A DNA stretch of 64,000 nucleotides from Candidatus Omnitrophota bacterium (GTDB lineage Bacteria > Omnitrophota > Gorgyraeia > Zapsychrales > Fredricksoniimonadaceae), in the NCBI GenBank assembly GCA_903944345.1, contig CAJARJ010000014.1, positions 64,990 through 128,989 of the forward strand. Direction: 5' to 3'. Of the stretch, positions 2,572 to 59,299 are shown piece after piece. The notes beneath the pieces are model-generated. The model did no database searches. It saw only the letters and a program-made list of their open reading frames with translations, and was not told the DNA's origin. Each line of letters opens with the position of its first letter. Position 1 is the stretch's first letter. The translations under genes were made by a program, and so were the position numbers.

Positions 2572-2797
2572 GTGATCTCCTTTAAACATATTAGCTATCT
2601 AGTTTGACTAGTTATTTACAAGTGATCCCTATAAACGATGCCCCCTGATCGTGCAATGCAAAAATGCCGGAATGGATTCTCCCCTCCTTTCTTGACCAGA
2701 CTAGGAACATCACAGGGTTAAGGTTGAGGTTATTTTGTCACCAGGATTTTACACTGTCAAAGGAAAACTGAAAAAAATTAACAGCAGAAAAAAGAAA

Positions 2798-2870
2798 CGC
2801 CCCCGGGCCGACTCGAACGGCCACAACAGCCTTAGGAGAGCCGTGCTCTATCCTGTTGAGCTACGGGGGC
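2798..2870 (-). tRNA. tRNA-Arg (anticodon CCU), 73 nt, CCA not encoded
   Basis: Reverse complement is GCCCCCGTAGCTCAACAGGATAGAGCACGGCTCTCCTAAGGCTGTTGTGGCCGTTCGAGTCGGCCCGGGGGCG. Acceptor stem GCCCCCG/CGGGGGC. D-stem GCTC/GAGC. T-arm GGCCG-TTCGAGT-CGGCC. Anticodon loop CTCCTAA, giving CCT. The anticodon stem has two G-U pairs. Confidence 0.8.
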
Positions 2871-2877
2871 ATTGAAA

Positions 2878-41102: not shown

Positions 41103-44100
41103 AACCCGACCTCCTCCACCGCAACAGGATTGATGGTCACCAGAAAACCCCGCACCCTGTGTGGAGCATAGACATCCGCCAGCAAGCGCAAATACTCCCG
41201 CAACTGATCCCTTCCGGCATCCGTTGCCGAAGCAAGCTTGAAATCCACCACCTGGACCTCGTCCTTGAAGACGAGAATGCGGTCTGGCCTGCGTTCCTTG
41301 CCATCAGGAAGAAGAAAGGCTTTCTCACAAAAGACTTGAGCACAAGTAAAGAAAAAATGGCGGGTGGCCCGGGCTGTAAGCAGCGCCTCAAGTTCCTGCA
41401 AAAGAGATTCCTCGGCCGGCACACCGCAAAGGCGGGCAGCTGTCACCAGCGCCTCCCGGGCATCCGTCCCCGGCGGCAATCCAGGAATTCCGGCCAGGAT
41501 CGCGTGACGCAAGACCCCCTCCTGACGTTCACGACGGAACGCCAGCGTTTCCCGGGGAACGAATTCATCGGCAAGATACTCCATCCAGTCCCGGCATGCC
41601 GAAGGCTGCAGGGCACGGATCTCTCCATCCTCCCGGCGTTCTTTCCTTGCCACCGGACCGGTAGTCCCGATGGCATAACAATCCGCAGGAATCAAGGCCA
41701 ACGCAGGATTAACAGCCCGCCCGGCCCGGGAAGGAATAAAAACATACAGCTCCTCCGCAGCCCGGGTCAGAGCAACATAGGTCATATTCAGTTCCCCCAT
41801 CAGAGAGCGAATATACTCCCGCGCGTAACCCTCATCAGCCGTATCGGAATACTTTCTGTAATCCTGGGTCAAACGCAAAAGCCGGACCTCGTCTCCGTCA
41901 ACAACAGGAGTGTAATTGTGCGCGCGCCCGTCACCCGATCCTGACACCTTGGGCTTTATCGTCAACAAAGGAATAATCGTAACCGGAAACTCCAGACCTT
42001 TGGCCTTGTGCACCGTCAAAAGTTTAACAGCATCTCCACCCGGCCCTCGCACAAAAAGCACTTCGCCCGCAAGAAGGGCGTAATGTTCCAGAAAACCGGA
42101 GAGATCCGGATAATCCTTTTCCTTCTCCTTGACCAATTCGAGAAAACGCATCAGGAACGCCTGCCCTTCGACACAATGGACAAGAGCATTCGTCCGGCGA
42201 TAGAAACTCACGATCAGCTCGTACAGAGGATACGTCCCGAAATTACAAAAGAAATCATCGAGCAGTTCATTCCAGAGTCCGGAATATTGCTGCTGAAAAA
42301 ACACATACAACGATTCCGGAAAACCGGCCTGAGATCGCCCTATGCGCCAGCGCAAGATCATATCCTCCAGCTGGTCACGCTGGAGGCCGGAGGCGCGGGT
42401 AAAAATATCGCCCAGAATAAACCCGGCGAAAGCCTGGCTGTCCTGCGGTTCTGCCAGAAAACCCAGGAAAGAAACCACTTCCTCGACCAAAGGGTGTTCA
42501 CGGATACTCGAAAGGCGTTCCGAGTGCACCGGGATTCCTTCTTCCAGCAGCCAGCGGGCCGTTTCCTCCACCTCGCTGTTGGAACGTAAAAGCAGCGCAA
42601 CCGAGCTCCAGTCATAGCCGCGCTCTTTAAGGGAACGCAGCAGGGAAATAATCCTGACTCTGACCAGCTCGAGCGTTTCTTCTTTCAGCGCAGCGCACTC
42701 CACCTGCTCGACCCGAACAACTCCACCGCCGTCCGTTCTGGCGGAAGACTGCCGCGAAGAATGAAAAACTTCCCCCAACCGACGAATATCATCCGTGCTA
42801 AACCCGATAGCCGTGTCTTTTCTCACACCTTTACTGTCCAGCCCGAAACCGGCAGCAAAACGTTCGAGCGAAGCCAGATCAAAAACACGATTGTTGAACT
42901 CGACCACGGCGGGCAGGCTGCGCCAATTAACCGCAAGAGAAACTTCCTGCACATTGTACGAACGGTAAGCCTCCTTGAGCTCGTCAAAAAGACCCGCCTC
43001 ACCCCCGCGAAATCCATAAATCGCCTGCTTCTTGTCGCCAACATAAAACAGCGTCCCCCCGGATGAAATGGCGTCCTCCGGCAAAAGGCGCAGGTTCTCC
43101 CACTGCAAAAGACTGGTATCCTGAAACTCGTCCACCAGATAATGCCGGTAACGCACGGCCAGACGGTAGAAAATATCCGGAACAGCCAGCCCACCCTCAA
43201 AAAGAACCTTGGCCCGGGAATTAAGCTCTTCAAGAAAAAGGACATCCTCCCGGGAACAGTCCCCGGAGAGAAAAGCACGCATCAGATAATAAATCGCGAC
43301 ATACGGATCATACAGATGCCTGACTTCCAGATCCGCCGCCCGCAAGAACCCCTGATGGATTTTCTGCCACAAATCAGCCTGCTGGCCGGTGACCAGCGCC
43401 CCTTTGTTGACAGGAATATCCTGGCGGGCAAAATACGCTGACAAATCATTGAAACGAAAAGAACGGCGCCCGGTATCAAGAAACTTGTCCAGGCTTTTGA
43501 CAAACGTCCCGTTGGCTCCATCGGGTAAGATCTGCCGGAAAGACTGCAAGTCACAAACAATCTGCTTCTTGAGCGCAAGAATCTCTTCCGGAGAAACCTG
43601 ACCGCGGGCAATCGGAAGGGCAAAGGTATTCTCGATCGAAAAAAGCCCTCTCAGGGCTTCCAATACAGCCTCTTTGGGCATCCAGCTGGTACGAGCCTCG
43701 ACATGTAAATAATTAAAAATAAAATCCTCGAACAAGCGGCGCACATGCTTGTCAGAAGCAGCTGTGTCCACCAGTGCGTCCAATGCGCGAGCTATATACT
43801 CACCGGAATCTGTCCTGATAGAAAACGCCGATGTCAACCCTGCCTGCGCCCCGCAACTGACCAGCAGGGTGTTGATGAAGCGATCAATGGTTTCAACCTG
43901 AAAAAAATTGTAATGACCGATAATTTCCGCCATCAAGCCCCGGGCCAGTTCAACGGCACGCGGCCGGGACAATCCAAGCGGAGACAGAACTGACTGCTCC
44001 AGGGCGGTGTCGATTCTGTCAAGCGCGATCCGCTTGATAAAATCGAGTATACGCCGCTTCATTTCAATAGCGGCTTTATTGGTGAAAGTCAGCGCCAGAA

Positions 44101-44257
44101 TGGAGCGTAGCGGAAGCTCAAGGCCGGCATCCGTCATTTTCAGGGCAAGAATCACATAGCGTGCAGCCAAGGCATAGGTTTTGCCCGATCCGGCAGAGGC
44201 CTCCACCACACGAACTTCAGGAAATGTTATGGGAATATGCGAGGGTATTTCTTTCAC
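41099..44257 (-). CDS. addA: AddA/RexA-like UvrD-family helicase with C-terminal PD-(D/E)XK nuclease
   Basis: Walker A VEASAGSGKTYAL, helicase motifs (LTFTNKAA, VDEFQDT, VGDKKQAIYGFRGG, MTIHKAKGLEF). C-terminal nuclease RPDRILVFKDEVQVVDFKL. Start assigned to GTG at 44257, which overlaps the upstream stop as GTGA. The ORF-track TTG at 44347 would overlap the upstream gene by 94 nt. Confidence 0.75.
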   Translation of the reverse strand: MKEIPSHIPITFPEVRVVEASAGSGKTYALAARYVILALKMTDAGLELPLRSILALTFTNKAAIEMKRRILDFIKRIALDRIDTALEQSVLSPLGLSRPRAVELARGLMAEIIGHYNFFQVETIDRFINTLLVSCGAQAGLTSAFSIRTDSGEYIARALDALVDTAASDKHVRRLFEDFIFNYLHVEARTSWMPKEAVLEALRGLFSIENTFALPIARGQVSPEEILALKKQIVCDLQSFRQILPDGANGTFVKSLDKFLDTGRRSFRFNDLSAYFARQDIPVNKGALVTGQQADLWQKIHQGFLRAADLEVRHLYDPYVAIYYLMRAFLSGDCSREDVLFLEELNSRAKVLFEGGLAVPDIFYRLAVRYRHYLVDEFQDTSLLQWENLRLLPEDAISSGGTLFYVGDKKQAIYGFRGGEAGLFDELKEAYRSYNVQEVSLAVNWRSLPAVVEFNNRVFDLASLERFAAGFGLDSKGVRKDTAIGFSTDDIRRLGEVFHSSRQSSARTDGGGVVRVEQVECAALKEETLELVRVRIISLLRSLKERGYDWSSVALLLRSNSEVEETARWLLEEGIPVHSERLSSIREHPLVEEVVSFLGFLAEPQDSQAFAGFILGDIFTRASGLQRDQLEDMILRWRIGRSQAGFPESLYVFFQQQYSGLWNELLDDFFCNFGTYPLYELIVSFYRRTNALVHCVEGQAFLMRFLELVKEKEKDYPDLSGFLEHYALLAGEVLFVRGPGGDAVKLLTVHKAKGLEFPVTIIPLLTIKPKVSGSGDGRAHNYTPVVDGDEVRLLRLTQDYRKYSDTADEGYAREYIRSLMGELNMTYVALTRAAEELYVFIPSRAGRAVNPALALIPADCYAIGTTGPVARKERREDGEIRALQPSACRDWMEYLADEFVPRETLAFRRERQEGVLRHAILAGIPGLPPGTDAREALVTAARLCGVPAEESLLQELEALLTARATRHFFFTCAQVFCEKAFLLPDGKERRPDRILVFKDEVQVVDFKLASATDAGRDQLREYLRLLADVYAPHRVRGFLVTINPVAVEEVGL

Positions 44258-44991
44258 GGACGACTCAAATACAACGGATCTTCCAGGGACTCCCGGATAA
44301 CTGCCGCACTCGCCTCGACCGTCGACTGTCCGGGTTTCATGCCCCAATCCATATTAATACCCGGAACCGTGGCCAGCGCGGCAGACAAGCGGTCTCTCTC
44401 GGCCGGAGTAAAATCCAGCACCCTGCAGGTCTCATCTTCGCAATGAGCAGAACTCAACATGACCCTGGTGGCCAGAACACTGGCCCGCAAAACATCCTTG
44501 GCCACCTCTTTTTTCTGCTGGGCCAAAAGAACCTGCTGTCGGCTGAATTCTTTCTCGTCAAAATTTTCAGGCTGCCCATCGGTTATGTAGCGCAAGAAAC
44601 CTGACCAAAGCGTACGCTCCCGGGCACTCATCGTCAAAAGACGCTGATAAGCATCAACGGCCGTCAGCGCCGTCTTGCGGACAAAAGGGCTGGCCGATGA
44701 ACAATAACGCTTCAGATAATTGCGGGCTATGCGCAGTTCCGTATTATCCAGTGTACGGTTGGCGATCAATTGCCGAACCACGGCTTGCTGCTCCAGAGAG
44801 GCCGCCGCGGTTTCACCTTCCAGCTGAAGTCTTTGCGCAACCCGGGCGTAATAAGAGAGAGCAAAAATATAATCTTTAACAAAAGCGTACTTTCCCGCGT
44901 CCGGATTGAGTTCCCTGAACGAAAGCTCCGAGGCATACACTGGCGGAAGAAAAGCAAAAAGACAACAAAAAACAATACACAGTCTGAGCAT
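44254..44991 (-). CDS. Hypothetical secreted/periplasmic protein (signal peptide)
   Basis: MLRLCIVFCCLFAFLPPVYA|SE. No recognisable family. Translationally coupled to the addA-like gene. Confidence 0.5.
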   Translation of the reverse strand: MLRLCIVFCCLFAFLPPVYASELSFRELNPDAGKYAFVKDYIFALSYYARVAQRLQLEGETAAASLEQQAVVRQLIANRTLDNTELRIARNYLKRYCSSASPFVRKTALTAVDAYQRLLTMSARERTLWSGFLRYITDGQPENFDEKEFSRQQVLLAQQKKEVAKDVLRASVLATRVMLSSAHCEDETCRVLDFTPAERDRLSAALATVPGINMDWGMKPGQSTVEASAAVIRESLEDPLYLSRP

Positions 44992-45028: not shown

Positions 45029-45403
45029 CTAATTGGCGTTACCCGCTCCCAGGACTTTCTGAACCTTGGCGATCAGCTCGGAGGACGAACAGGATTTGTG
45101 CAGATATTCAATACCCATAAGAACCCCCAGCCGACCATCAAGCTCCTGATCCCTGCAAGTCAGCAAGATCACGGGGATTGGCTTCAACTCCGGATCAAAC
45201 TTCATTTTGAAACATACATCATAACCATTAAGCTCGGGCATCATGACATCAAGCAACAACAGATCAGGCTTGTCCTGCTTCAAACGCGCCAAAGCCTCAA
45301 CACCGTCAGCGGCAAGAATAACCTCGAAGCCAAAACGCTGCAAAGCTTCTGAAATGATTCGCCTTATTGTCGGATCATCATCCGCGCACAGTATCTTTTT
45401 CAT
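45029..45403 (-). CDS. Stand-alone response-regulator receiver domain protein (CheY-like)
   Basis: MKKILCADDDPTIRRI...LLLLDVMMPELNG...VILLTCRD. 124 aa. Confidence 0.75.
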   Translation of the reverse strand: MKKILCADDDPTIRRIISEALQRFGFEVILAADGVEALARLKQDKPDLLLLDVMMPELNGYDVCFKMKFDPELKPIPVILLTCRDQELDGRLGVLMGIEYLHKSCSSSELIAKVQKVLGAGNAN

Positions 45404-45524: not shown

Positions 45525-46538
45525 TCATCCAGCAAAAACAGAAAAGTTCCTCTGCAAAATGGTATCAAGGGGGGTGTGCGCAGAGTAGCGGCTAAAATAC
45601 CATTTCTGGCTGAAAACAGCCCGCTCCCCCGGAAGAAGGGATTGGACAGGAGAGTGTATCTCCAGCTCTCCATAAGGAGCTGAGGCCGAGTTAAAAACTT
45701 CGACCACAGAGGAGTGGGCGTATGACCTGGAGATATCTACCGGGAAAGACTTGAGAAAACTGATCATCCCCTGCGCCGACTTCTTCAGCAAAAGAACCGC
45801 TCCCGGAGAATACCAGGCGCCGAACTTGAAGCATACCCCCGAATGAACCGGCAAGTGCGACCATGCCCCACAGGTTTCGGCCTGCTGTCCGGGATCGGGC
45901 AGAGTGCTGTCATGCGTATGATAGGATCGGATACACTGCGTGGAACAGGGAAAATACACATCAAATGGCCGCGGAACCTGGGTGACTGTCCACAAACCTT
46001 TATTAACCGGAACATTGCCGGCATTCTCGAAGATTTCAGTCACTCCAAGCCGGTTGTATTCCAGAAAACTTATACGACGGGTCACGCGCAAACCTGTTTC
46101 ACGACAAACCGGACTGGTCAAGACAACACTCTCGGCGTCTTCAACAACAGAAAAAGGCGCCCGGTCAAGATCGACCGGAGGCATGCCTTCCCACCACTCC
46201 TTCTCCGGAGCCGGCCAGACCTTGCTGCCTCCGGGAAGAAGAAAACCGGTTCGGCGCTTGAAAGAACGCAGATCGGCATTCGCGCAAGGAACTTCCAGAG
46301 GAAATGCCGGGGGAGAAAACAACAATTCAAGACCGGCGAAAACCAGGGACATGATCCGTCCACCGGCAGAAGGCACAATACCAACAGAAAGGTCGCCGCA
46401 AGAACGACGGATTGCAGGCCACCCGCAAACCCGGGTATCCTCAACCTTTACGTCCAAGCGCCCCCCTGATCCTTTCTTTGGCCTGTAGAGACAACCGGTC
46501 TTGTTCAAGGGGAGGGACATTGTCCAGAAGTTCTTCAT
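45525..46538 (-). CDS. Hypothetical protein with an aldose-1-epimerase/galactose-mutarotase-like N-terminal signature
   Basis: LDVKVEDTRV...LSVGIVPSAGGRIMSLVFAGLELLF resembles the mutarotase-like family start. 337 aa. The 5' end overlaps the anti-sigma gene by about 30-98 nt depending on start. Confidence 0.45.
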   Translation of the reverse strand: MKNFWTMSLPLNKTGCLYRPKKGSGGRLDVKVEDTRVCGWPAIRRSCGDLSVGIVPSAGGRIMSLVFAGLELLFSPPAFPLEVPCANADLRSFKRRTGFLLPGGSKVWPAPEKEWWEGMPPVDLDRAPFSVVEDAESVVLTSPVCRETGLRVTRRISFLEYNRLGVTEIFENAGNVPVNKGLWTVTQVPRPFDVYFPCSTQCIRSYHTHDSTLPDPGQQAETCGAWSHLPVHSGVCFKFGAWYSPGAVLLLKKSAQGMISFLKSFPVDISRSYAHSSVVEVFNSASAPYGELEIHSPVQSLLPGERAVFSQKWYFSRYSAHTPLDTILQRNFSVFAG

Positions 46539-46740
46539 GACGGATAAACACTTTTCTTAATACAGAAATCTGTGCCCGGTAGAAAGAACAGGTTTTGCAC
46601 AAACACAAGTGCAGCCGCATGACAATAAATTCGCGCAAAGACAGCCGACGCTCGAACGAAAGGGATACCAGAAGAGCGGCCTGCTTGCAGGAAACAAGCC
46701 AACCGGTACGCGTTTCTTTTTCCAGATTTATAGGTGTCAT
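46441..46740 (-). CDS. ZAS-family (RsrA-like) zinc-binding anti-sigma factor
   Basis: 99 aa. C18-x25-H44-x3-C48-x2-C51 (SCKQ...RLHLCLCKTC) fits the C/H-x(23-26)-H-x3-C-x2-C ZAS motif. ATG overlaps the ECF sigma stop (ATGA). Confidence 0.6.
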   Translation of the reverse strand: MTPINLEKETRTGWLVSCKQAALLVSLSFERRLSLREFIVMRLHLCLCKTCSFYRAQISVLRKVFIRHEELLDNVPPLEQDRLSLQAKERIRGALGRKG

Positions 46741-47345
46741 TTTTTCAGATCAAACCAGTTACGTTCCAGACATTCGCGCAGCTGAAGCCTTGCCCGATGC
46801 AGCATCACCCACAGATTGGTAGGCGTAATCCCCAGCTCCTTACATATTTCCCCGGTATCTTTATCATCCAATTCACGCATGGCAAAAGCATGCGCGGTAT
46901 TTTGCGGCAATTTCCCCATGCAATGTTGCAGTGTCTCCCAGAATTCCTTGTTATGCAAAAGGGCTTCCGGCTCGGGCATCCAGTCTTTGGGAAACTTGCG
47001 CGGATCTCCGGCTGCATCGTAAAAACTGTCGATAGTCTGCTCTTCATCATTTTGCTGGCCCTGTAAGTCCGTAACCGTCTTCTCACGAAAATCCCGGCGA
47101 TAATGATCAATAATCTTATGTTTGAGAATACCCACCATCCAGGTCCGCTCGGTCGACCTGCCGCTGAAACTGTTCTTGCCCGTAATGGCTGCCAGAAAAG
47201 TTTCCTGAACCATGTTTTCGGCCAAATCCTTGTTGCGCAAACGCATCATCGCATAACGAAACAGATAATCGCCGTGCTGGTCAACCCATGTCGCTGGATC
47301 GGAAAGGCTTGCCTTGAGTGGCTTGGGGGCTAATGGTGACTGCAT
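46737..47345 (-). CDS. ECF-subfamily RNA polymerase sigma factor (sigma-24 type)
   Basis: Region 2 DLAENMVQETFLAAI. Region 4 GEICKELGITPTNLWVMLHRARLQLRECL. 202 aa. Confidence 0.8.
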   Translation of the reverse strand: MQSPLAPKPLKASLSDPATWVDQHGDYLFRYAMMRLRNKDLAENMVQETFLAAITGKNSFSGRSTERTWMVGILKHKIIDHYRRDFREKTVTDLQGQQNDEEQTIDSFYDAAGDPRKFPKDWMPEPEALLHNKEFWETLQHCMGKLPQNTAHAFAMRELDDKDTGEICKELGITPTNLWVMLHRARLQLRECLERNWFDLKK

Positions 47346-47469: not shown

Positions 47470-49596
47470 TTAACAGCAAGAAGAAACACCTGGCAACTGC
47501 AGGCAAACCTTGGTCCACTGGCCATACTCGGATGTCAGGGCAATCTCGCCCCCTTGTCCTTTAACCAGGTTCTGCATCGCATAAAGGCCAAGTCCGGTGC
47601 CATTCTCCGTGCCCTTGGTGGTAAACAAAGGAATAAAAACTTTCTCCATATTCTCCGGCCTGATGCCAATTCCATTATCCTCCAGCTCAATCCAGACCCG
47701 ATCGGACCGGACCTCGGCCCGAACGATAATCCGCCCCATATATCCGGCAACCTGTTCCCCGGATTTTCTGCGAGCCCTTATAGCGTCCAGGCTGTTGTCA
47801 AAAGCATTGGCAAAAACATCCTGGATAACGGCATCGTTAACCCAGAGTTGTATATCTTCGCCGTAATCCTCGAGAAATTCGATCTTGACCCCCGGATGCT
47901 TAACTTCAGCCAAGGCTCGCCCCCCCTGAATGAGATCCCTGAGCCTGACAACACGCGGTTCGGCACCTTTCTTGCTGGAACGCTTGAGAGCGTCGGCAAT
48001 CGAACGGGAACTCAGAGCGTCGCGGATGATCAGCGGATAATTCCGGAAACACTCCCTTATTTTGCTAACCAGCTCATCACGGGAATTGTTCTGCAGAGCA
48101 TTCTCATCGAGCAAGTCCTGGGCAATCCACAACTCGGCTGTGATCCGGTTCAGGCGATTAGCCATCTGATGAGCCACGGCCGAGCCAAGCAACCCGATCT
48201 CTTTCAATCGCCGGTCATGCATCTTTTCCTCAAAACTCTTGCGCTCCTGCTCATAGTTCTGGGCATTGACAATCGCCATGGCACCGTTAATTGCCACGTC
48301 ATTTAGAACCTCCAGATCGCGGTCAGAATACACACGCCCTGCTTTTTCGCCCAATAAAAGCAAGCCTGGCATTGATCCGGCCCTGCGGAAAGGAACCGCC
48401 GCCGCTGCTGGCACGCTGGAGAGCGCCTTGACCAGAAGTGCTGTCTTCTGCTCATCCTCGCATTTGACCACCCCCTGACGGAATTCATCCAGATACCGGG
48501 TGCCGTGCTTTTTAAGAAACAAAACCAGCGGATGATCTGCAGGCAAAGCCTCAGGGTATCCATGCGACTGACCGTAGACCTCTTTGCGCAGATAAGCTTC
48601 TCCATCAAACAAATAAAACACCGCGGCCATCGGACGAAACGTCTTGCCGATAATATCGACCACCGAACGAATAATGTCGTCGGCATTAAGAATATCGGCA
48701 AAAGTTGTGGAAACACGCGTTATCACGGCCTGACGTTCACGTTCTTCTCTAAGAATCTTGTCCTCGGCCTGCTTGCGGAAATAACCGTAGATGAACGGCG
48801 CAGGAGTGGCAAAAAGAATGGCCGAACATAAAGCGATAAAATAGTACCCTTTATTGTAGAGGATAAAAGGAATTCCCAAAGCCACGGAATAAACAACCAG
48901 GAAAATGCCCGCTGTGGTTATGGCTACGCGGATGTCCATCAAACTATGCCGTGTAATTGCATAGGTTACCGCAACAACATAAATAACCACAAGACTTACC
49001 CCAAATGGATAAATAGGGATGTTAAACACATAAAAGAATGTCGTTGCTCCTCCTAAGAAACCAATCATTGTCCCAAATAAAATATATTTCGACTGCACTG
49101 CAACAATGGCACTCGAACTCCTATAAAACTTATAAAGCAAATATAACCCCCTCCCAGCCAAGAACGAGAAGAATGGAAAGAAAAAATAATAAAGTATTCC
49201 CGGCTTTGGATAATATAAAAACTCTGCCTTCGGAGAGACTTTCGGAATAAACAAACTGGGGAATAATAACGCTAGAATTATTATGATGAAAGCGATGACA
49301 TAATAGGAAATGAATTCCTTCTTTTTCGAAGACTTAGAAAATAGAAAAACAAAATGAACAAAAAAGGTTGGAATAGAAATTGCTGATAAATTCAAAAAAC
49401 GCAACCAAAAAAGAGCTGAGGCATGGTCTGTTGATGAATAAGCCTTAAACAATCCAAATCCCCAAAACGCTACTGCTAAACTAAAAACCGACCAAGTAAA
49501 CTTTAAAATACTAAAGGGGCGACTCAAAATAACCATCAGGAAACATAATGCACTGCCTAAGGCTATGATGACGCCTGACATTGAAAGATAATTCAT
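47470..49596 (-). CDS. Sensor histidine kinase: multi-pass (>=7 TM) membrane sensor region, GAF domain, HisKA and HATPase_c, no receiver
   Basis: N-terminal 300 aa hydrophobic. GAF-like middle. H-box GSAVAHQMANRLNRI. N-box and G-boxes (NAFDNSLDAI, DNGIGI, GTGLGL). ATG overlaps the upstream methyltransferase stop (ATGA). The 5' third of the gene is strongly AT-rich. Confidence 0.75.
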   Translation of the reverse strand: MNYLSMSGVIIALGSALCFLMVILSRPFSILKFTWSVFSLAVAFWGFGLFKAYSSTDHASALFWLRFLNLSAISIPTFFVHFVFLFSKSSKKKEFISYYVIAFIIIILALLFPSLFIPKVSPKAEFLYYPKPGILYYFFFPFFSFLAGRGLYLLYKFYRSSSAIVAVQSKYILFGTMIGFLGGATTFFYVFNIPIYPFGVSLVVIYVVAVTYAITRHSLMDIRVAITTAGIFLVVYSVALGIPFILYNKGYYFIALCSAILFATPAPFIYGYFRKQAEDKILREERERQAVITRVSTTFADILNADDIIRSVVDIIGKTFRPMAAVFYLFDGEAYLRKEVYGQSHGYPEALPADHPLVLFLKKHGTRYLDEFRQGVVKCEDEQKTALLVKALSSVPAAAAVPFRRAGSMPGLLLLGEKAGRVYSDRDLEVLNDVAINGAMAIVNAQNYEQERKSFEEKMHDRRLKEIGLLGSAVAHQMANRLNRITAELWIAQDLLDENALQNNSRDELVSKIRECFRNYPLIIRDALSSRSIADALKRSSKKGAEPRVVRLRDLIQGGRALAEVKHPGVKIEFLEDYGEDIQLWVNDAVIQDVFANAFDNSLDAIRARRKSGEQVAGYMGRIIVRAEVRSDRVWIELEDNGIGIRPENMEKVFIPLFTTKGTENGTGLGLYAMQNLVKGQGGEIALTSEYGQWTKVCLQLPGVSSCC

Positions 49597-50639
49597 ATCT
49601 TACTAGCTTTAAGAATCCAATAGCTATTACATCCGACCGGATTCTCGACCTTAAATATTTTATTCCCTGTCAAATCTACACCCCACTCTGATAGTTCCTC
49701 TTTTGTTCTATGGTACATCCGCCAATCCCCAAACACTTCATAATAGGCTCTATGTCTAGCATTCTCTAAAGACATATTAAAAATGATTAAATCTTTCTTT
49801 GTGATTGAGAACAGTCTGGCAAAGATCTTTCTCGCGACACGCACACTCAAATAATCAAAAACTCCAGAAGCATATAGAAGTTCAACATTAGCAAACAATG
49901 AAAGGAATTGGTCGTTCTTGATGACCTCGACCAAGTCCATCACATAAAAATGAATATCGATCTTTGTTTTATCATAAACCAAATTTGATAACTGCCGTTG
50001 CACATATGAAACTGCTTTCTTCTCAAGATCTAAAAGATGAAATGTCCCTTGCTCTATTTTCCCTTCTTGCAAAAGCTCAATAATTTCTCGCGCAGAACCA
50101 CAACCAACACTCAGAATAGCAGCATCCTTATTTACCGTTAACGTCTGCAGTATTGAATTCTTTATGTAATCTTTTCGTGCGATATTTGATTTCGCAACAT
50201 TAATATTGCATGTATATCTATTTATAAGCATAGAATACAAGGAGTCACCCAAGTATCTTTTGTCATGATAATCATAAATATAATTCATCATTACAAAATC
50301 TCCGGCATAACCAAGAGGCCTACTACGAATATATGTATTTGTCTCGATTGAGTTCCCTAAATACGGGTAAAGTATTTGATTAAAAAAACATCTCTTTTCC
50401 TCGAAAACGTGGTCTTTGAAACTTAAAAAATATTCCCAGAACTCATCGAAGTACGCATCTAAAACCGGGAATAGCTTCTCAGCCGCAGAAAGTAATATCT
50501 TTTCTTTATCAACATACATTGAGCTAATATTAAATTGATCAAGCTCGTCTTTTGTAACACGCAAAATTTCTTTTAAAGACTCCACCTCTTCTTCAAAAGA
50601 TTGACTTCTAGACTCAACAACAATCATTTTATTTCCCAT
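49593..50639 (-). CDS. Class I SAM-dependent methyltransferase, PhcB-like (3-hydroxy-fatty-acid methyl-ester synthase family?)
   Basis: 348 aa. SAM motif ILSVGCGSAREIIELL followed by an acidic residue. RSRPLGYAGD motif that I associate with the PhcB family from memory (unverified). SD GAGGGGAAAG. Very low GC. Confidence 0.55.
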   Translation of the reverse strand: MGNKMIVVESRSQSFEEEVESLKEILRVTKDELDQFNISSMYVDKEKILLSAAEKLFPVLDAYFDEFWEYFLSFKDHVFEEKRCFFNQILYPYLGNSIETNTYIRSRPLGYAGDFVMMNYIYDYHDKRYLGDSLYSMLINRYTCNINVAKSNIARKDYIKNSILQTLTVNKDAAILSVGCGSAREIIELLQEGKIEQGTFHLLDLEKKAVSYVQRQLSNLVYDKTKIDIHFYVMDLVEVIKNDQFLSLFANVELLYASGVFDYLSVRVARKIFARLFSITKKDLIIFNMSLENARHRAYYEVFGDWRMYHRTKEELSEWGVDLTGNKIFKVENPVGCNSYWILKASKI

Positions 50640-51045
50640 GACTTTCCCCTCAACACACTGAAGAGTCCAATCCTAAAAAATGTCAGAAGCTTGGGAACCT
50701 TTAATAAAAAAACGAATCTGCATTTCTCGTTAATAAAAATATAGAGAATCTATGACGAAACTCCGATGAATAAGACTAACCACCATACTTATATCTCTAG
50801 AAAAGCTCCCAAACTTTCCGAATAAATTTGATGATTCCAAAATTATCAGTTACTTAATATACCAGCCTTTAGACGCTTCCATTTCATCGAACCAACATTT
50901 TACCCCACAATTTCTTCAGATCCCAGCTTACAACAGACACCCTTACTGACCTGCTAATGATTCTTCTTGGCAAGCTTGAAAGAGACTTATGCTTTGGCTT
51001 TGGCCTCTGACACTGCCCAAGCAAGCGCATCTTGCTAGGCATACA

Positions 51046-51093
51046 TAATAAAAAAGGCCGAGCTAAAAGCTCGGCCTGTTCGTTTATTTTTTT
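51046..51093. terminator. Orphan bidirectional rho-independent terminator in the metH upstream spacer
   Basis: ataataaaaaa-GGCCGAGCT-aaa-AGCTCGGCC-tgttcgtttattttttt. Hairpin with an A-run on one side and a T-run on the other. No annotated gene ends nearby on either strand. Confidence 0.5.
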
Positions 51094-51309
51094 ACTGCCC
51101 AACACATCCACATAGCAGTTGCCCTCTGGGCTACCTTCGATAGTCTTTACCTTCTTCCGACGAAAGACAACAAGCAATATATCATACCCCTCAAAAAAAA
51201 CAACAACTTTCTCGCCGTCAGCACACTTTCTATCGCCGGAGAGCGCCCGTATTCAAACCGGACGAATCAGGAATTGACTTTATCCCTGCTTTCTATTATC
51301 GTTCTAGCC

Positions 51310-54300
51310 ATGAATAATCCCTTCTCTAAACACCCTATAGCCCAGGCGTTAAACCAACGCATTCTTGTTCTTGACGGTGCCATGGGCACCATGATCCAGC
51401 GCCACCGCTTGACCGAAGAAGCCTACCGCGGAGGCCCCCAAGGGCGTTTTGGCTCCTGGCATAGCGACCTGAAAGGCAATAACGACCTGTTGTCGCTCAC
51501 CCAGCCTGCCATCATCGCTGACATCCATCGTGCCTACCTTGAAGCTGGTGCGGATATCATTGAAACCAATACCTTTAACGCCAATCGCATTTCCATGGCG
51601 GACTATCACATGGAAAGCCTGGTTGGCGAGCTCAATCTGGCCTCTGCCCGGCTGGCACGCTCTGTCTGCGACGAATTCACCAAAAAAAATCCCGCACGCC
51701 CGCGTTTTGTTGCCGGTTCTATTGGACCCACCAATCGCACTGCGTCCATATCACCGGATGTCAATGACCCCTCCTTCCGCGCGGTCACCTTTGACCAGCT
51801 GGTTGAAGCCTACACGGAACAAATCCTTCCCTTGGCGGAAGGCGGCGTGGATTTGCTGCTCATTGAAACCATTTTTGATACCCTTAACGCCAAAGCCGCA
51901 GTCTTTGCCGCGTTGACCTTTAACGAAACAGCCGCCCGTCCTTTGCCACTCATTATTTCGGGCACCATAACTGACGCCTCGGGCAGAACCCTTTCCGGCC
52001 AGACAGCAGCGGCTTTCTGGACTTCCCTAAAGCACGCCCGTCCGCTGGCCTTTGGATTCAACTGCGCGCTCGGAGCAAAAGACCTGCGCCCGCATATTGC
52101 CGAAATTTCAGATCTGGCGGATACCTTTATCAGCGCCTACCCCAATGCCGGATTGCCAAACCAGTTCGGCGAATACGACCAAAACCCTGAAACCATGGCC
52201 GCCCTGATTCGCGAGTTTGCCATCAGCGGACTGGTCAATATTGTAGGCGGCTGCTGCGGCTCGACCCCCGAACATATCCGGGCCATTGCGAATGCAGTCA
52301 ACGCCGTACCGCCAAGAAAAATTCCTGCAATTGCTCCGGCTTCGTCCTGGAGCGGGCTCGAACCACTCGTACCGGGAACCAGCCCCGTTTTTATAAATAT
52401 CGGGGAACGCACCAATGTGACCGGATCCAAAAAATTTGCCAAACTGATTATTGAAGAAAAATACGAAGAGGCCCTGGCGATTGCCCGCCAGCAGGTCAAT
52501 GCCGGCGCCCAGATTATCGATATCAACATGGATGAAGCCATGCTGGATTCGCTCTCGGCCATGACCCGTTTTCTCAACCTGATTGCAGCGGAACCGGATA
52601 TCGCCCGCGTTCCGGTCATGATCGACTCATCCCGCTGGGATGTTATTCTCGCCGGGCTCAAATGTGTGCAGGGCAAACCGCTGGTCAATTCGATCAGCCT
52701 CAAGGAAGGTGAAGACCTTTTCCGGCAACGCGCCAACATCATCCGCAAGTTCGGGGCGGCCGCGGTTGTTATGGCGTTTGACGAGCAGGGCCAAGCGGAT
52801 ACCAAAGAACGTAAAACCGCCATCTGCTCCCGGGCCTACCGTATTCTTGTTGAAGAAGCCGGATTCCCGGCAGAAGACATCATCTTTGATCCCAATGTTT
52901 TCGCGGTGGCTACCGGGATCGAAACCCATAACCGCTACGCTCTTGATTTTATCGAGGCCGTGCGCGAAATCAAACGCACTCTGCCTCTGTGCCGGGTCTC
53001 CGGAGGGATCAGCAACGTCTCCTTCTCCTTTCGCGGCAATGAGCCTGTCCGCGGAGCCATGCATTCGTCCTTTCTTTATCACGCGATCCAGTCCGGCCTG
53101 GACATGGGAATTGTCAATGCGGGGGTCATTCCGGTCTACAACGAAATCGCCCCGGATCTTCTGGCCTGCGTCGAAGATGTTCTGCTCGACCGGCGCAAGG
53201 ATGCTACCGAGCGACTGGTCACCCTGGCCGGAACTGTCCAGACCCAGCAGCAGAAGACTGTGGAAGATGATGCCTGGCGCAAAACTTCTCTGGAAGAACG
53301 ACTGGCCCATGCTCTGGTCAAAGGGATAACAGATTTTATCGATGCCGATATAGAAGAAGCCCTGAAACTTTATCCGCGTCCGCTCTCTATTATAGAAGGG
53401 CCGCTGATGACCGGAATGAACCGGGTCGGCGATCTTTTCGGAGAAGGAAAAATGTTCCTGCCCCAGGTGGTCAAAAGCGCCCGGGTCATGAAAAAAGCCG
53501 TGGCTGTCCTGCAGCCCTTTATTGAACAGGACAAATCCTCGCAAGCCTCAAGCGCCGGGAAGATCATTATGGCCACCGTCAAGGGTGACGTCCATGATAT
53601 CGGAAAAAACATCGCAGGGATCGTTCTGGCCTGCAACAACTTTGAAATTATTGATCTGGGCGTTATGGTGCCCTGCGACCGCATCCTGGCCGCGGCACGC
53701 GAACACAAGGCCGACATCATCGGACTTTCCGGGCTGATCACCCCTTCACTTGAAGAAATGACCCATATCGCCGCGGAAATGCGCCGCCAGCATTTTTCCA
53801 TCCCGCTGATCATCGGAGGAGCAACCACCTCCGAAAAACATACCGCTGCCAGGATCGCTACGGAATACCACGGACCGGTCATCCATGTCAAAGATGCCTC
53901 GCGGGCTGCGGGGATTTGCCGCAAACTGATGGACCCCGGCACTGCGGAAACATTTATCCTTGAACAAGCGGCGCACCAGAAGATGCTGCGCGAACGCCTG
54001 GCTGCCGAACAGCAAACGGCCTGGAAACTTCTTCCTCTCAAAGAAGCCCGGCAGATGAAAACCCCGATCCAATGGTCGCAGGACATGGTCTGCTCGCCTC
54101 GCCGGATGGGCATCACCAGCTTCAAAAACTTTGATATACGCCGGATACGGGCAAGAATTGACTGGTCGTTCTTCTTTCTGGCCTGGGGCATCAAGGGGCG
54201 TTATCCTGCGCTCATGAAAGACCCCAAAACCGCCACAGAAGCCGGAAAACTTTTTACCGATGCCCAGGCCATGCTCGATCAAATCGAAAAGCGCGCACTG

Positions 54301-59074: not shown

Positions 59075-59290
59075 AAAAAACCCTTTTGCTACCGAAGTAA
59101 CAAAAGGGGTCTATAAAATTAAACAGTTTATGGACGCCTTATGCCGTTACGCGCAGCATGATCGCATTATATTGTTCAGGTCTTCTGACTTGCCGCGCAG
59201 GATTTTTCCTGCGCACGGCTCACAGTAGCGCGACTGTCCGTGAATTTCACACGGTTTCCCTGACATCAAATTTTAGATAGAGACTTGCCT
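59075..59290 (-). promoter_or_regulatory. Cobalamin (B12) riboswitch with intrinsic-terminator expression platform
   Basis: Minus-strand leader contains GGGAAACCGUGUGAAAUUCACGG (conserved GGGAA...GGUG..AAxUCC core) and GCUACUGUGAGCCGUG. B12-box-like AGUCAGAAGACCUG. Helix GCGCAGGA-aaaa-UCCUGCGC. Then hairpin ACCCCUUUUG-uuacuucgguag-CAAAAGGG followed by UUUUUUC, ending 10 nt before the btuB-like ATG. Confidence 0.65.
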
Positions 59291-59299
59291 CCTGAAGTT

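Follow-up and report, generated by a model that had tools for sequence, protein, structure and literature searches.

This locus raises the question of why a methyltransferase gene and only the membrane-sensor part of the following kinase gene should share a low GC content, while the rest of the kinase does not. An earlier note had seen in this a recombination joint or domain swap and a candidate small-molecule signalling module. Overall, the observation was confirmed in the present analysis and that interpretation was supported, with the corrections given below. Positions refer to the window, that is the whole stretch of 64,000 nucleotides analysed, and the features needed for the argument are as follows.

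45029..45403, minus strand: stand-alone receiver (REC), a candidate phosphoacceptor (Pfam Response_reg, 79.7 bits)
46441-46740, minus strand: anti-sigma factor (NF052368, 46.7 bits, below the cutoff of 50)
46737-47345, minus strand: ECF sigma factor (Pfam Sigma70_r2/r4_2; NCBIfam TIGR02943, 197 bits)
47470..49596, minus strand: sensor histidine kinase of 708 aa, HisKA_7TM - GAF - DHp (His476) - HATPase_c (Pfam, H-box)
47470..48939, minus strand: conserved kinase core with the last two hydrophobic segments, GAF, DHp and CA (nucleotide identity, GC3 0.573)
48397..48636, minus strand: second, smaller mosaic patch within the GAF domain, kinase codons 321-400 (nucleotide identity, dS)
48943..49596, minus strand: variable sensor part in the cassette, kinase codons 1-218, approximately the first five hydrophobic segments (identity, GC3)
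49593..50639, minus strand: PhcB-superfamily class I SAM-dependent methyltransferase (MT) of 348 aa (homologues, invariant residues, hhalign, AF2)
50640..51015, minus strand: allele-specific cassette leader of 376 nt (junction alignment, leader sequences)
48940..51015, minus strand: replaceable low-GC cassette of 2,076 bp, comprising leader, MT gene and kinase codons 1-218 (blastn, GC 0.32-0.39)
51016..51217, minus strand: conserved upstream flank with terminator hairpin, the putative left recombination anchor (88-91% nucleotide identity to L086/L091/L100)
51055..51077, minus strand: intrinsic-terminator-like hairpin with a 10-bp stem, 7 GC pairs and a T-run on the minus strand (terminator scan)

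Composition and boundaries of the cassette

In 300-bp windows the GC content stands at 0.32-0.39 from about 48850 to about 50950, with flanks of 0.50-0.58, and in 1-kb bins across the 64-kb window the two bins at 49-51 kb have a GC of 0.35 and the remaining 62 bins 0.47-0.56; no other dip of such depth occurs in the window. The drop to about 35% that had been placed at 48.8-51.3 kb is real, with an upper edge nearer 51.0 than 51.3 kb. It reflects codon usage rather than amino-acid content. The MT has a GC3 of 0.338, about 6 SD under the average for the remaining long ORFs of the window (0.553, sd 0.036; 52 ORFs called), kinase codons 1-218 have a GC3 of 0.353 as compared to a minimum of 0.463 among 327 equal-sized codon windows elsewhere, and the one further ORF with four or more TM segments stands at 0.533. 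It follows from these comparisons that the dip exceeds that of the other membrane-protein gene and that the 5' region of the kinase is compositionally distinct, two of the points on which the earlier note had staked its reading.

Within the kinase gene, a maximum-likelihood GC3 change-point was located at codon 218 (position 48942; LLR 14.8), with 0.35 before and 0.57 after, and coincides with the end of the Pfam HisKA_7TM match (residues 14-222) on its C-terminal side; the shift thus begins inside the kinase gene, between an AT-rich sensor part and a host-like core, as had been proposed. Across 19 loci the MT lies 0.094 below each genome's own GC3 background (p=6e-4) and the 7TM segment 0.142 below it (p=8e-6), and the kinase core sits at that background (p=0.42); the reduced GC3 of 7TM segments could in part be a general trait of fast-evolving membrane domains.

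Orthologous loci lose homology abruptly, exactly at the GC change-point, which bears out the suggestion of a recombination joint or domain swap. When the allele-B loci L086, L091 and L100 and locus L105 were compared with the window by blastn, homology stopped at 51016 and resumed at 48939, and inside the cassette the sole similarity to the allele-B loci was a 184-bp, 68% patch in the MT core. Nucleotide identity of the flanks among orthologous loci of close relatives is 86-91%. The left junction, resolved to the base in the junction alignment, falls immediately after ...GCGCTTGCTTGGG, and the right junction lies in the motif RHSL/MDIRVA (the slash marks the junction), where conservation within the sensor half peaks across the family. 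With respect to L086, the MT is 44% identical and the flanking proteins 83-97%; in 40-residue bins, kinase residues 1-200 are 22-35% identical, residues 241-320 85-98% and residues 401-708 75-100%. The kinase core, beginning exactly at 48939, is 86% identical in nucleotides and about 90% in amino acids (DHp and CA together 91%), and the mosaic patch in the GAF domain has a nucleotide identity of 0.63 as compared to 0.78-0.88 in the adjoining segments (dS 1.6; dN/dS 0.21; about 50% amino-acid identity).

Such sharp edges might be produced by an assembly chimera or compositional artefact in which the AT-rich block was misjoined, and many metagenome contigs do break at the junctions: nine contigs of independent assemblies begin (L093-L097, L106, L108) or end (L001, L002) within 50 bp of the right junction, L001 and L002 cover only positions 51044-48905, and L098 begins 18 bp inside the conserved core. 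The abrupt GC change could be a partial cause of these breaks, which we also read as a population signal of cassette exchange. However, contig L087 (52190-43593) spans both junctions at 100% identity, the same allele is present in L088, L089, L090 and L109 (13 contigs in all), the reading frame is unbroken across the junction, and the architecture recurs at orthologous loci. The recurrence of the allele, both junctions included, in independent assemblies effectively refutes a chimera.

The block is also not a simple inserted island but rather an allelic cassette at a resident locus, the alternative allele being equally AT-rich and having a leader of just 61 nt. Just two deeply divergent cassette types were found on this backbone, A/A' and B, and never together in one sample. 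The polarity follows from the outgroup backbone L105 (80% nucleotide identity to the window): its cassette is of type B and collinear with that of L086, so in the window's lineage type A took the place of type B. The nearest relative of the window's MT (58%) and 7TM domain (66%) is L003, in a different genomic context, and that of the kinase core is L086 (83%); for both cassette and core, the closest relatives with a name are Omnitrophota MAGs, for a host that had been taken as deltaproteobacterial in type. Cassettes A and A' are 92% identical in nucleotides (dS 0.17), and the backbone L101 from the same sample series as A', to which A' is tied by sample co-occurrence only, is just 86.6% identical (backbone dS 0.36-0.80), a contrast that speaks for mobility of the cassette. 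The comparison of A with A' gives a dN/dS of 0.12 (MT) and 0.13 (7TM segment): both halves are under purifying selection, and both are functional.

The spacer upstream of the MT (50640-51273) measures 634 bp rather than the 670 bp given earlier and is AT-rich only in its cassette part, 50640-51015. The hairpin lies about 40 nt upstream of the cassette and is kept in relatives (its loop is inverted in L091); with a proper T-run on the minus strand only, it is not convincingly bidirectional. The terminator that had been assigned to the island is a feature of the conserved backbone outside it. Folding of the 161 nt around the hairpin is not unusual (z=-1.74), and in the leader we found neither an ATG-start small ORF nor an Rfam family at its gathering score.

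The methyltransferase and its coupled kinase

The MT contains the VGCGSAREI and RPLGYAGD motifs noted previously, and is laid out as an N-terminal helical domain (residues 14-168) followed by a Rossmann domain (173-346). Among Pfam families it matches Methyltransf_25/31/12 only, all below threshold, yet 132 homologues were found, 13/13 family-invariant residues are present and the AF2 model has a pLDDT of 92.3. Its description as PhcB-like is supported. A Paraburkholderia PhcB-type MT, located in an MT-HK-RR-RR operon and belonging to a Burkholderiales PhcB-type orthogroup that includes Cupriavidus members (68-69% identity), was used as a proxy for Ralstonia PhcB; the MT family aligns with it end to end over 398 columns (hhalign probability 100%, E=1.4e-45) and shares all the signature motifs (KPLGYAGD..MN, VGCGxAxE, Y..G.FDYLS and N..R..E..W..R), and several family members bear an automatic PhcB label. 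Because identity to the proxy is just about 25%, however, the MT is a superfamily member and not a PhcB orthologue; it is also without the approximately 120-aa N-terminal domain of PhcB-length proteins.

The TGA of the MT overlaps the kinase ATG as ATGA, as had been read from the sequence before. The kinase has Pfam matches to HisKA_7TM (40.8 bits), HATPase_c (68.7 bits) and, below cutoff, GAF_2 (20.4 bits), and its H-box AHQMANRL contains His476. That the pair travels as a unit is confirmed by the family: a multi-TM kinase lies downstream on the same strand within 1.7 kb in each of the 35 closer-tier loci whose downstream sequence is long enough, directly after the MT in 24 of these and often with the same 4-bp overlap, and in the distant tier a hybrid kinase follows the MT in 22/36. 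The Mantel correlation is 0.57 for MT and 7TM, 0.42 for MT and kinase core, and 0.21 for 7TM and core.

Neither a conserved response regulator beside the pair nor a conserved export gene near it was found across the family loci. The ECF sigma/anti-sigma pair described earlier was confirmed by profiles, as was the orphan receiver; these backbone genes downstream of the kinase are 97% (sigma), 93% (anti-sigma) and 93% (receiver) identical in amino acids to those of L086. The sigma/anti-sigma context is absent from the other family loci, and in a few of these (L020, L024, L027, L036) the gene right after the kinase is REC-only.

Explanations for the joint exchange

We favour, with a probability of roughly 0.55, a PhcBS-like methyl-ester synthase and receptor pair in which the synthase and the ligand-sensing half are exchanged together in a pherotype-like manner. 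The MT would convert a cellular carboxylic acid, by analogy with PhcB a (hydroxy) fatty acid, to a hydrophobic methyl ester with SAM as the donor, and we infer that the HisKA_7TM domain of the co-translated kinase, with its several TM segments, would detect this small-molecule signal within the membrane. From there the signal would pass through the final TM helices and then the GAF domain before reaching His476 and the ATPase domain. The 2.1-kb cassette would be swapped as a unit through homologous recombination, anchored in the conserved upstream flank and in the sensor-domain motif of highest conservation. Exchange as a unit implies that close relatives carry differing synthase-plus-sensor specificities on the same kinase core, and the alleles may represent separate communication groups.

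Alternatively, the MT might be a CheR-like modifier or accessory subunit docked on the 7TM domain from the cytoplasmic side, where it would methylate the kinase or adjoining lipid, so that MT and sensor co-vary through a protein-protein interface and not through ligand synthesis. We consider this unlikely, but it draws on several observations: the ATGA coupling suggests a stoichiometric complex; the family profile matches, among solved structures, only the protein carboxyl methyltransferase CheR (5ftw, E=7e-7, over the catalytic domain), so that the substrate may be a protein; distant members have weak Pfam CheR matches, and the matches include a Deinococcus gene with a CheR annotation (E=1e-10). 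Many family members are moreover fused to PilZ or REC domains, which shows that the MT takes part in signalling and is regulated itself, and it could then be the output of a pathway and not its input. The PilZ (c-di-GMP) input on many MTs ties the enzyme to surface or biofilm physiology, and would suit a private metabolic feedback in which the MT makes a methylated envelope lipid or metabolite, the 7TM kinase monitors the product or its precursor in the same cell, and cassette exchange is an adaptation of envelope chemistry. The MT-kinase coupling and the small-molecule context fit this scenario, as does the lack of a conserved export gene or dedicated response regulator. We regard it nevertheless as quite doubtful, as the characterised homologue PhcB yields a diffusible quorum signal (PMC11960443, PMC8578825) and loci that set signal-receptor specificity are characterised by the joint replacement of an enzyme and of just the ligand-sensing half of the kinase (PMC10482373, PMC4408185).

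A further possibility is that the sensor is an exposed membrane protein, for instance a phage or toxin receptor, under diversifying selection, with the MT hitch-hiking; this might explain why the 7TM segment differs most between close relatives and deviates most in composition family-wide. It is very improbable given that both genes are under purifying selection between the close variants A and A', that the cytoplasmic MT diverges as a sharp-edged block and that the pairing is kept across phyla; a defence-system search gave no meaningful match.

Comparison with known signalling systems

The synthase and receptor pair that we favour most resembles PhcB-PhcS (phcBSRQ) of Ralstonia and the Burkholderiales, in which the two proteins co-diverge by signal type (PMC11960443). 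The MT is homologous over the full catalytic and helical domains, and in both systems a multi-TM sensor kinase immediately follows it in the operon. The kinase here combines HisKA_7TM with GAF, as compared to the MASE8-like and HisKA architecture of PhcS, and its sensor has no detectable homology to the PhcS-type sensor; in addition, the window kinase is not followed by phcR/phcQ-type regulators, and the variable unit cuts through the kinase gene. In CheR-MCP carboxyl methylation, CheR makes carboxyl methyl esters, as the MT is predicted to do, and its target is a membrane signalling protein; it is also the sole solved sequence relative of the catalytic domain.

In Bacillus comQXP a modifying-enzyme gene and the adjoining kinase gene are also polymorphic, but the hosts are Gram-positive, the pheromone ComX is a peptide, ComQ is an isoprenyl transferase, and there is no homology to the window proteins. 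In work attributed to Tran et al. 2000 and Tortosa et al. 2001, comP is reportedly polymorphic in its N-terminal membrane region and comA conserved. The polymorphism of the two genes is striking among close relatives, and the pherotypes coexist in one habitat (PMC4408185). The hypervariable region of staphylococcal agr comprises agrB, agrD and agrC (PMC10482373), that is the signal-producing genes and the membrane sensor of the kinase, with the cytoplasmic part and the flanks conserved as they are here. The agr signal is a ribosomal peptide, AgrD, processed by AgrB, whereas the window enzyme is a methyltransferase, the proteins are not homologous, and no conserved peptide-precursor ORF was found at the cassette. 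The swap of methyltransferase and sensor part with the core unmoved is nevertheless the pattern of strain-specific quorum-sensing “dialect” loci, here with a probable small-molecule signal and in uncultivated bacteria.

A low-GC cassette within a resident locus

We note that the drop in GC previously estimated by eye is borne out by calculation, with values of 0.32-0.39 in 300-bp windows across ~48.85-50.95 kb as compared to 0.50-0.58 in the flanks on both sides. The two 1-kb bins at 49-51 kb stand at 0.35 GC and the remaining 62 at 0.47-0.56; the dip is unique in the window. The features concerned are:

47470-49596, minus strand: 708-aa sensor histidine kinase (ORF call)
49593-50639, minus strand: 348-aa methyltransferase (MT; ORF call)
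48940-51015, minus strand: the cassette (leader, MT gene and kinase codons 1-218), the rest of the locus being termed the backbone

As the earlier note had read it, the MT stop and the kinase start overlap in an ATGA. The dip is a codon-usage effect: third-codon-position GC (GC3) is 0.338 in the MT gene against a mean of 0.553 (sd 0.036) for the other long ORFs of the window (52 called), and 0.353 in kinase codons 1-218, where the lowest of 327 equal-sized windows elsewhere is 0.463. These controls rule out low GC as a mere property of membrane proteins, the sole other multi-TM ORF of the window having a normal GC3 of 0.533. The compositional shift suspected inside the kinase gene is confirmed by a maximum-likelihood GC3 change-point at kinase codon 218 (window position 48942), coinciding with the end of the match to HisKA_7TM (7TM), the membrane sensor part of the kinase (residues 14-222). 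The terminator hairpin at 51055-51077 is good on the minus strand only, so the bidirectional terminator that had been proposed is not convincing.

The window sequence occurs at 100% identity in independent assemblies that span both cassette edges and is therefore not a chimera. In L086, a locus from a close relative, the genes are arranged as in the window (MT, kinase, ECF sigma, anti-sigma, DUF4380, REC, 245-aa protein, AddA and AddB).

Amino acid identity of window proteins to L086
Flanking proteins: 83-97%
MT: 44%
Kinase residues 1-200: 22-35%
Kinase residues 241-320: 85-98%
Kinase residues 401-708: 75-100%

The kinase core is ~83% identical overall and its DHp+CA (phosphotransfer/ATPase) part 91%. 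Nucleotide homology to relatives, at 86-91% over 51217-51016, then disappears and is back at exactly 48939, supporting the recombination joint or domain swap that had been suggested; the replaced block of the window is 2,076 bp long, its counterpart in L086 1,769 bp. The two alleles are alike in being AT-rich, with an MT GC of 0.35 and 0.32, respectively. Locus L105, on a remoter backbone (~80% nucleotide identity), carries a cassette collinear with that of L086 (type B), and window homology again restarts at 48939, which argues that type B is ancestral and that type A was received by the window's lineage. The nearest relative of the window MT (58%) and 7TM segment (66%) is L003, in an unrelated genomic context, and that of the kinase core is L086. 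The feature is an allelic cassette at a resident locus. We reject a recent insertion of foreign DNA at a previously empty site, since the ancestral allele B is located there too and is AT-rich to the same degree.

Several further observations concern the backbone. A patch in the GAF domain (48397-48636, kinase codons 321-400) has a nucleotide identity to L086 of 0.63, as compared to 0.78-0.88 in neighbouring segments, with a dS of 1.6 and a dN/dS of 0.21; this looks like an older recombination tract within an otherwise conserved kinase core rather than positive selection. Read at its longest (337 aa), the DUF4380 ORF (45525-46538, minus strand) has ~100 nt in common with the anti-sigma gene; a 310-aa start (46457) is chosen by gene callers elsewhere, and the shorter start is probably the true one. 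Among the near-identical backbones of relatives L093-L098 (equivalent window ~42400-44270) the gene for the AddA-like helicase varies: its product has either 944 or 1052 aa, and a stretch of ~100 bp is unalignable. In L098 the insertion of two reverse-strand ORFs (255 and 86 aa) has reduced AddA to a remnant of 414 aa.

Junctions and exchange of the cassette

A variant of the type A cassette, A', is 92% identical to A and was recovered on 2.1-kb contigs made of the cassette alone, whose flank SNPs are not window-type. In the sample series that yielded A', the single backbone found has 86.6% identity to the window. Given a dS of 0.17 for the cassette as compared to 0.36-0.80 for the backbone, the cassette appears younger than the backbone split, A' being linked to this backbone by co-occurrence in samples only. 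Only two deep cassette types (A/A' and B) are found, on four backbone lineages. No sample contained both A and B, and two scans of JGI metagenomes, for the hairpin pattern of the left flank and for the kinase-core protein, yielded no further backbone relatives.

Nine contigs from independent assemblies have an end no more than 50 bp from the right junction, and another begins 18 bp inside the conserved core. We read these breaks as coexisting alleles splitting the assembly graph, to which the sharp GC change may contribute. The right junction, at RHSL|MDIRVA, falls where the sensor half is most conserved among 25 family kinases, which suggests exchange by homologous recombination anchored in conserved sequence. 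Site-specific recombination is unsupported, as the two junctions have no repeats in common beyond chance (one inverted 9-mer).

In locus L091 (~130-155) the hairpin loop is CTAAAAG, inverted with regard to the CTTTTAG of the window (51055-51077) and L086 on an identical 10-bp stem, and this looks like a hairpin-inversion polymorphism beside the left junction of the cassette. Rfam searches of the spacer gave nothing at gathering score, and a permissive scan of 50500-51400 gave sub-threshold matches only. Folding of the 161 conserved nt that surround the hairpin is not exceptional (z=-1.74), so we no longer propose a structured leader or a riboswitch. Elsewhere in the window, and unrelated to the cassette, are a cobalamin riboswitch (59157-59296, minus strand; 32.2 bits against a gathering score of 31.5) and a tRNA-Arg(CCT) (2797-2871, minus strand).

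The methyltransferase, its kinase and their relatives

The MT has generic methyltransferase matches in Pfam, all sub-threshold, no family in NCBIfam and nothing meaningful in a single-sequence search of PDB sequences; its best relatives among named genomes are at most 44% identical, several relatives being labelled 3-OH-PAME biosynthesis protein by the JGI pipeline. As a proxy for Ralstonia PhcB we used WP_114158447.1, encoded on a Paraburkholderia graminis replicon, where a gap of 2 bp separates the gene for a 468-aa MT from that for a 445-aa kinase, with two response regulators behind it. Its orthogroup includes Cupriavidus members at 68-69% identity, and members are named EF 3-OH-PAME protein by several sources. 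An hhalign comparison of a 77-sequence family alignment with this proxy covered 398 columns with all motifs in common (probability 100%, E=1.4e-45), and tblastn with the window MT alone gave E=3e-13 at 25.6% identity and 78% coverage. All 13 invariant columns of alignment A2 are kept in the window MT (G109, G112, D113, G130, R154, G180, E184, D203, Y255, D261, Y262, N287 and W305), and its predicted fold combines a helical N-domain with a Rossmann domain (pLDDT 92.3). By homology, and with its SAM-binding motif retained, we assign the MT to the PhcB superfamily of SAM-dependent MTs, whose annotation reads EF 3-hydroxypalmitic acid methyl ester (3-OH-PAME) biosynthesis protein. The earlier description of it as PhcB-like holds as regards full-length homology but probably not orthology, since identity to the proxy is ~25% and the extra N-terminal domain of the PhcB-length architecture (~465 aa) is absent, the 348-aa window MT starting at the helical domain. 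Compared with the Paraburkholderia proxy rather than with Ralstonia PhcB itself, it ranks as a distant, paralogue-level relative.

The N-terminus of the proxy aligns with the region where many relatives carry PilZ, REC or REC+PilZ. Across the MT family, N-terminal fusions to PilZ, REC, REC+PilZ or cNMP-binding domains recur (L003, L011, L020, L053 and many others), the window form being the bare 348 aa; this domain content implies that in many lineages c-di-GMP, phosphorylation or cyclic nucleotides may control MT activity.

The kinase has seven hydrophobic segments and matches HisKA_7TM (PF16927) over residues 14-222 at 40.8 bits against a cutoff of 28.6, and HATPase_c at 68.7 bits. No homology to a PhcS-type sensor was found: BLASTP against the Paraburkholderia kinase aligns DHp/CA only (25%, E=3e-18), and Pfam gives a weak MASE8 plus HisKA in that kinase as compared to HisKA_7TM plus GAF in the window kinase.

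The expectation that MT and kinase travel as a unit is upheld among named genomes. In the closer tier of MT-homologue loci, all 35 with enough sequence have a multi-TM kinase at most 1.7 kb downstream on the same strand: a 7TM kinase directly follows in 24, often with the same 4-bp overlap, one gene intervenes before it in nine, and two have another multi-TM kinase, one of which (L041) also matches HisKA_7TM in Pfam. The distant branch (MTs of ~490-520 aa; L045-L084; Myxococcota, Polyangiaceae and Bacteriovoracaceae MAGs) has the MT followed in 22 of 36 loci by a hybrid kinase of ~840 aa, comprising HisKA, HATPase, REC and a second HATPase. Members of this branch in Desulfomonilia and Thermodesulfobacteriota are without an adjacent kinase. 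Pfam was run on six of the nine intervening genes, and all six code for enzymes of small-molecule tailoring: GMC oxidoreductase, SDR/3-beta-HSD, 3-hydroxyacyl-CoA-dehydrogenase-like (a weak match) and ICMT/PEMT-type membrane methyltransferase. Two more match in size. Loci with a gene of these kinds between MT and kinase are L021, L022, L027, L029, L046 and L013, the GMC oxidoreductase bearing a Fer4 motif.

Divergence of the MT is correlated more closely with that of the 7TM part (Mantel r 0.57) than with that of the kinase core (0.42), the 7TM part and the core being nearly uncoupled (0.21). The compositional signature is family-wide: over 19 loci GC3 lies 0.094 (MT) and 0.142 (7TM) below the background of the same genome, with the kinase core at background. 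Comparison of A with A' gives a dN/dS of 0.12 in the MT and 0.13 in the 7TM segment. Judged from sequence, both halves of the cassette are functional and belong together.

A putative signal synthase and receptor exchanged together

We propose that the MT would be a methyl-ester signal synthase, co-translated with its membrane receptor kinase, and that synthase and ligand-sensing half of the receptor would be exchanged jointly to give pherotype-like alleles; the PilZ- and REC-fused MTs would then control the making of the signal or act back on it. We infer the nature of the product, that the 7TM part is its receptor and that the alleles differ in specificity. More broadly, pairs of MT and HisKA_7TM kinase might constitute a widespread, unrecognised family of methyl-ester quorum sensing in Omnitrophota, Nitrospirota, Elusimicrobiota and other largely uncultivated phyla, with cassettes that circulate horizontally and create pherotypes and with signal synthesis in many members under additional control by c-di-GMP (PilZ) or phosphorylation (REC), a proposal to which we give a probability of roughly one in three (0.35). 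In the literature searched, HisKA_7TM is named in two papers only, both of them archaeal two-component censuses; neither these nor the papers on PhcB, its homologs and PilZ describe a module of MT and 7TM kinase.

The main rival, which we hold to be unlikely, is that the MT is a CheR-like accessory to the kinase. The PilZ- and REC-fused members fit this as well as they fit a signalling role. For the MT, the combination of an above-threshold CheR domain match with a CheR fold as nearest structural neighbour was not found. PADLOC returned only a weak generic MT-domain match (mad2, 3.8e-5). No conserved output regulator of the pair was identified across the family loci. The ECF sigma/anti-sigma pair and the REC gene belong to the backbone and neighbour the MT-kinase pair in the window's lineage only, and the ECF-sigma/DUF4380/AddA context occurs in no named genome locus.

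If our proposal of a signal synthase exchanged with its receptor half is true, methyl-ester quorum sensing would reach beyond Burkholderiales into a wide range of bacteria that are uncultivated and in many cases tiny-celled, and of whose social behaviour, to our knowledge, almost nothing is known. With their near-identical kinase core, alleles A and B offer a natural specificity-swap set, for which RHSL|MDIRVA marks the chimera point. For metagenomics the cassette is of practical use, as it probably accounts for the repeated contig breaks in these assemblies and marks strain-level polymorphism.

Should the broader proposal hold, its agr/comQXP-style "dialect" architecture for a non-peptide signal would be one of which we know no description. 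The cut is the same as in agr and comQXP, with synthesis gene and sensor half variable (MT 44%, 7TM 22-35%) and kinase core (~83%) and flanking proteins (83-97%) kept, across junctions at 51016 and 48939. The difference is the ribosomal peptide gene: one within the cassette is ruled out, as the leader has no ATG-start small ORF, allele B has only 61 nt from junction to MT start, and MT and kinase overlap, so the locus would work like agr/comQXP and is a member of neither. The Ralstonia proteins PhcB and PhcS diverge together according to signal type (PMC11960443), the hypervariable region of agr extends over agrB, agrD and agrC (PMC10482373), and comQXP pherotypes coexist (PMC4408185); these precedents support an exchanged synthase and receptor. 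If so, the swapping of a synthase and ligand-binding half on a fixed kinase core would have arisen independently for a small-molecule signal. Our verdict on the locus is probable PhcBS-type signalling combined with cassette polymorphism of the agr/comQXP type.
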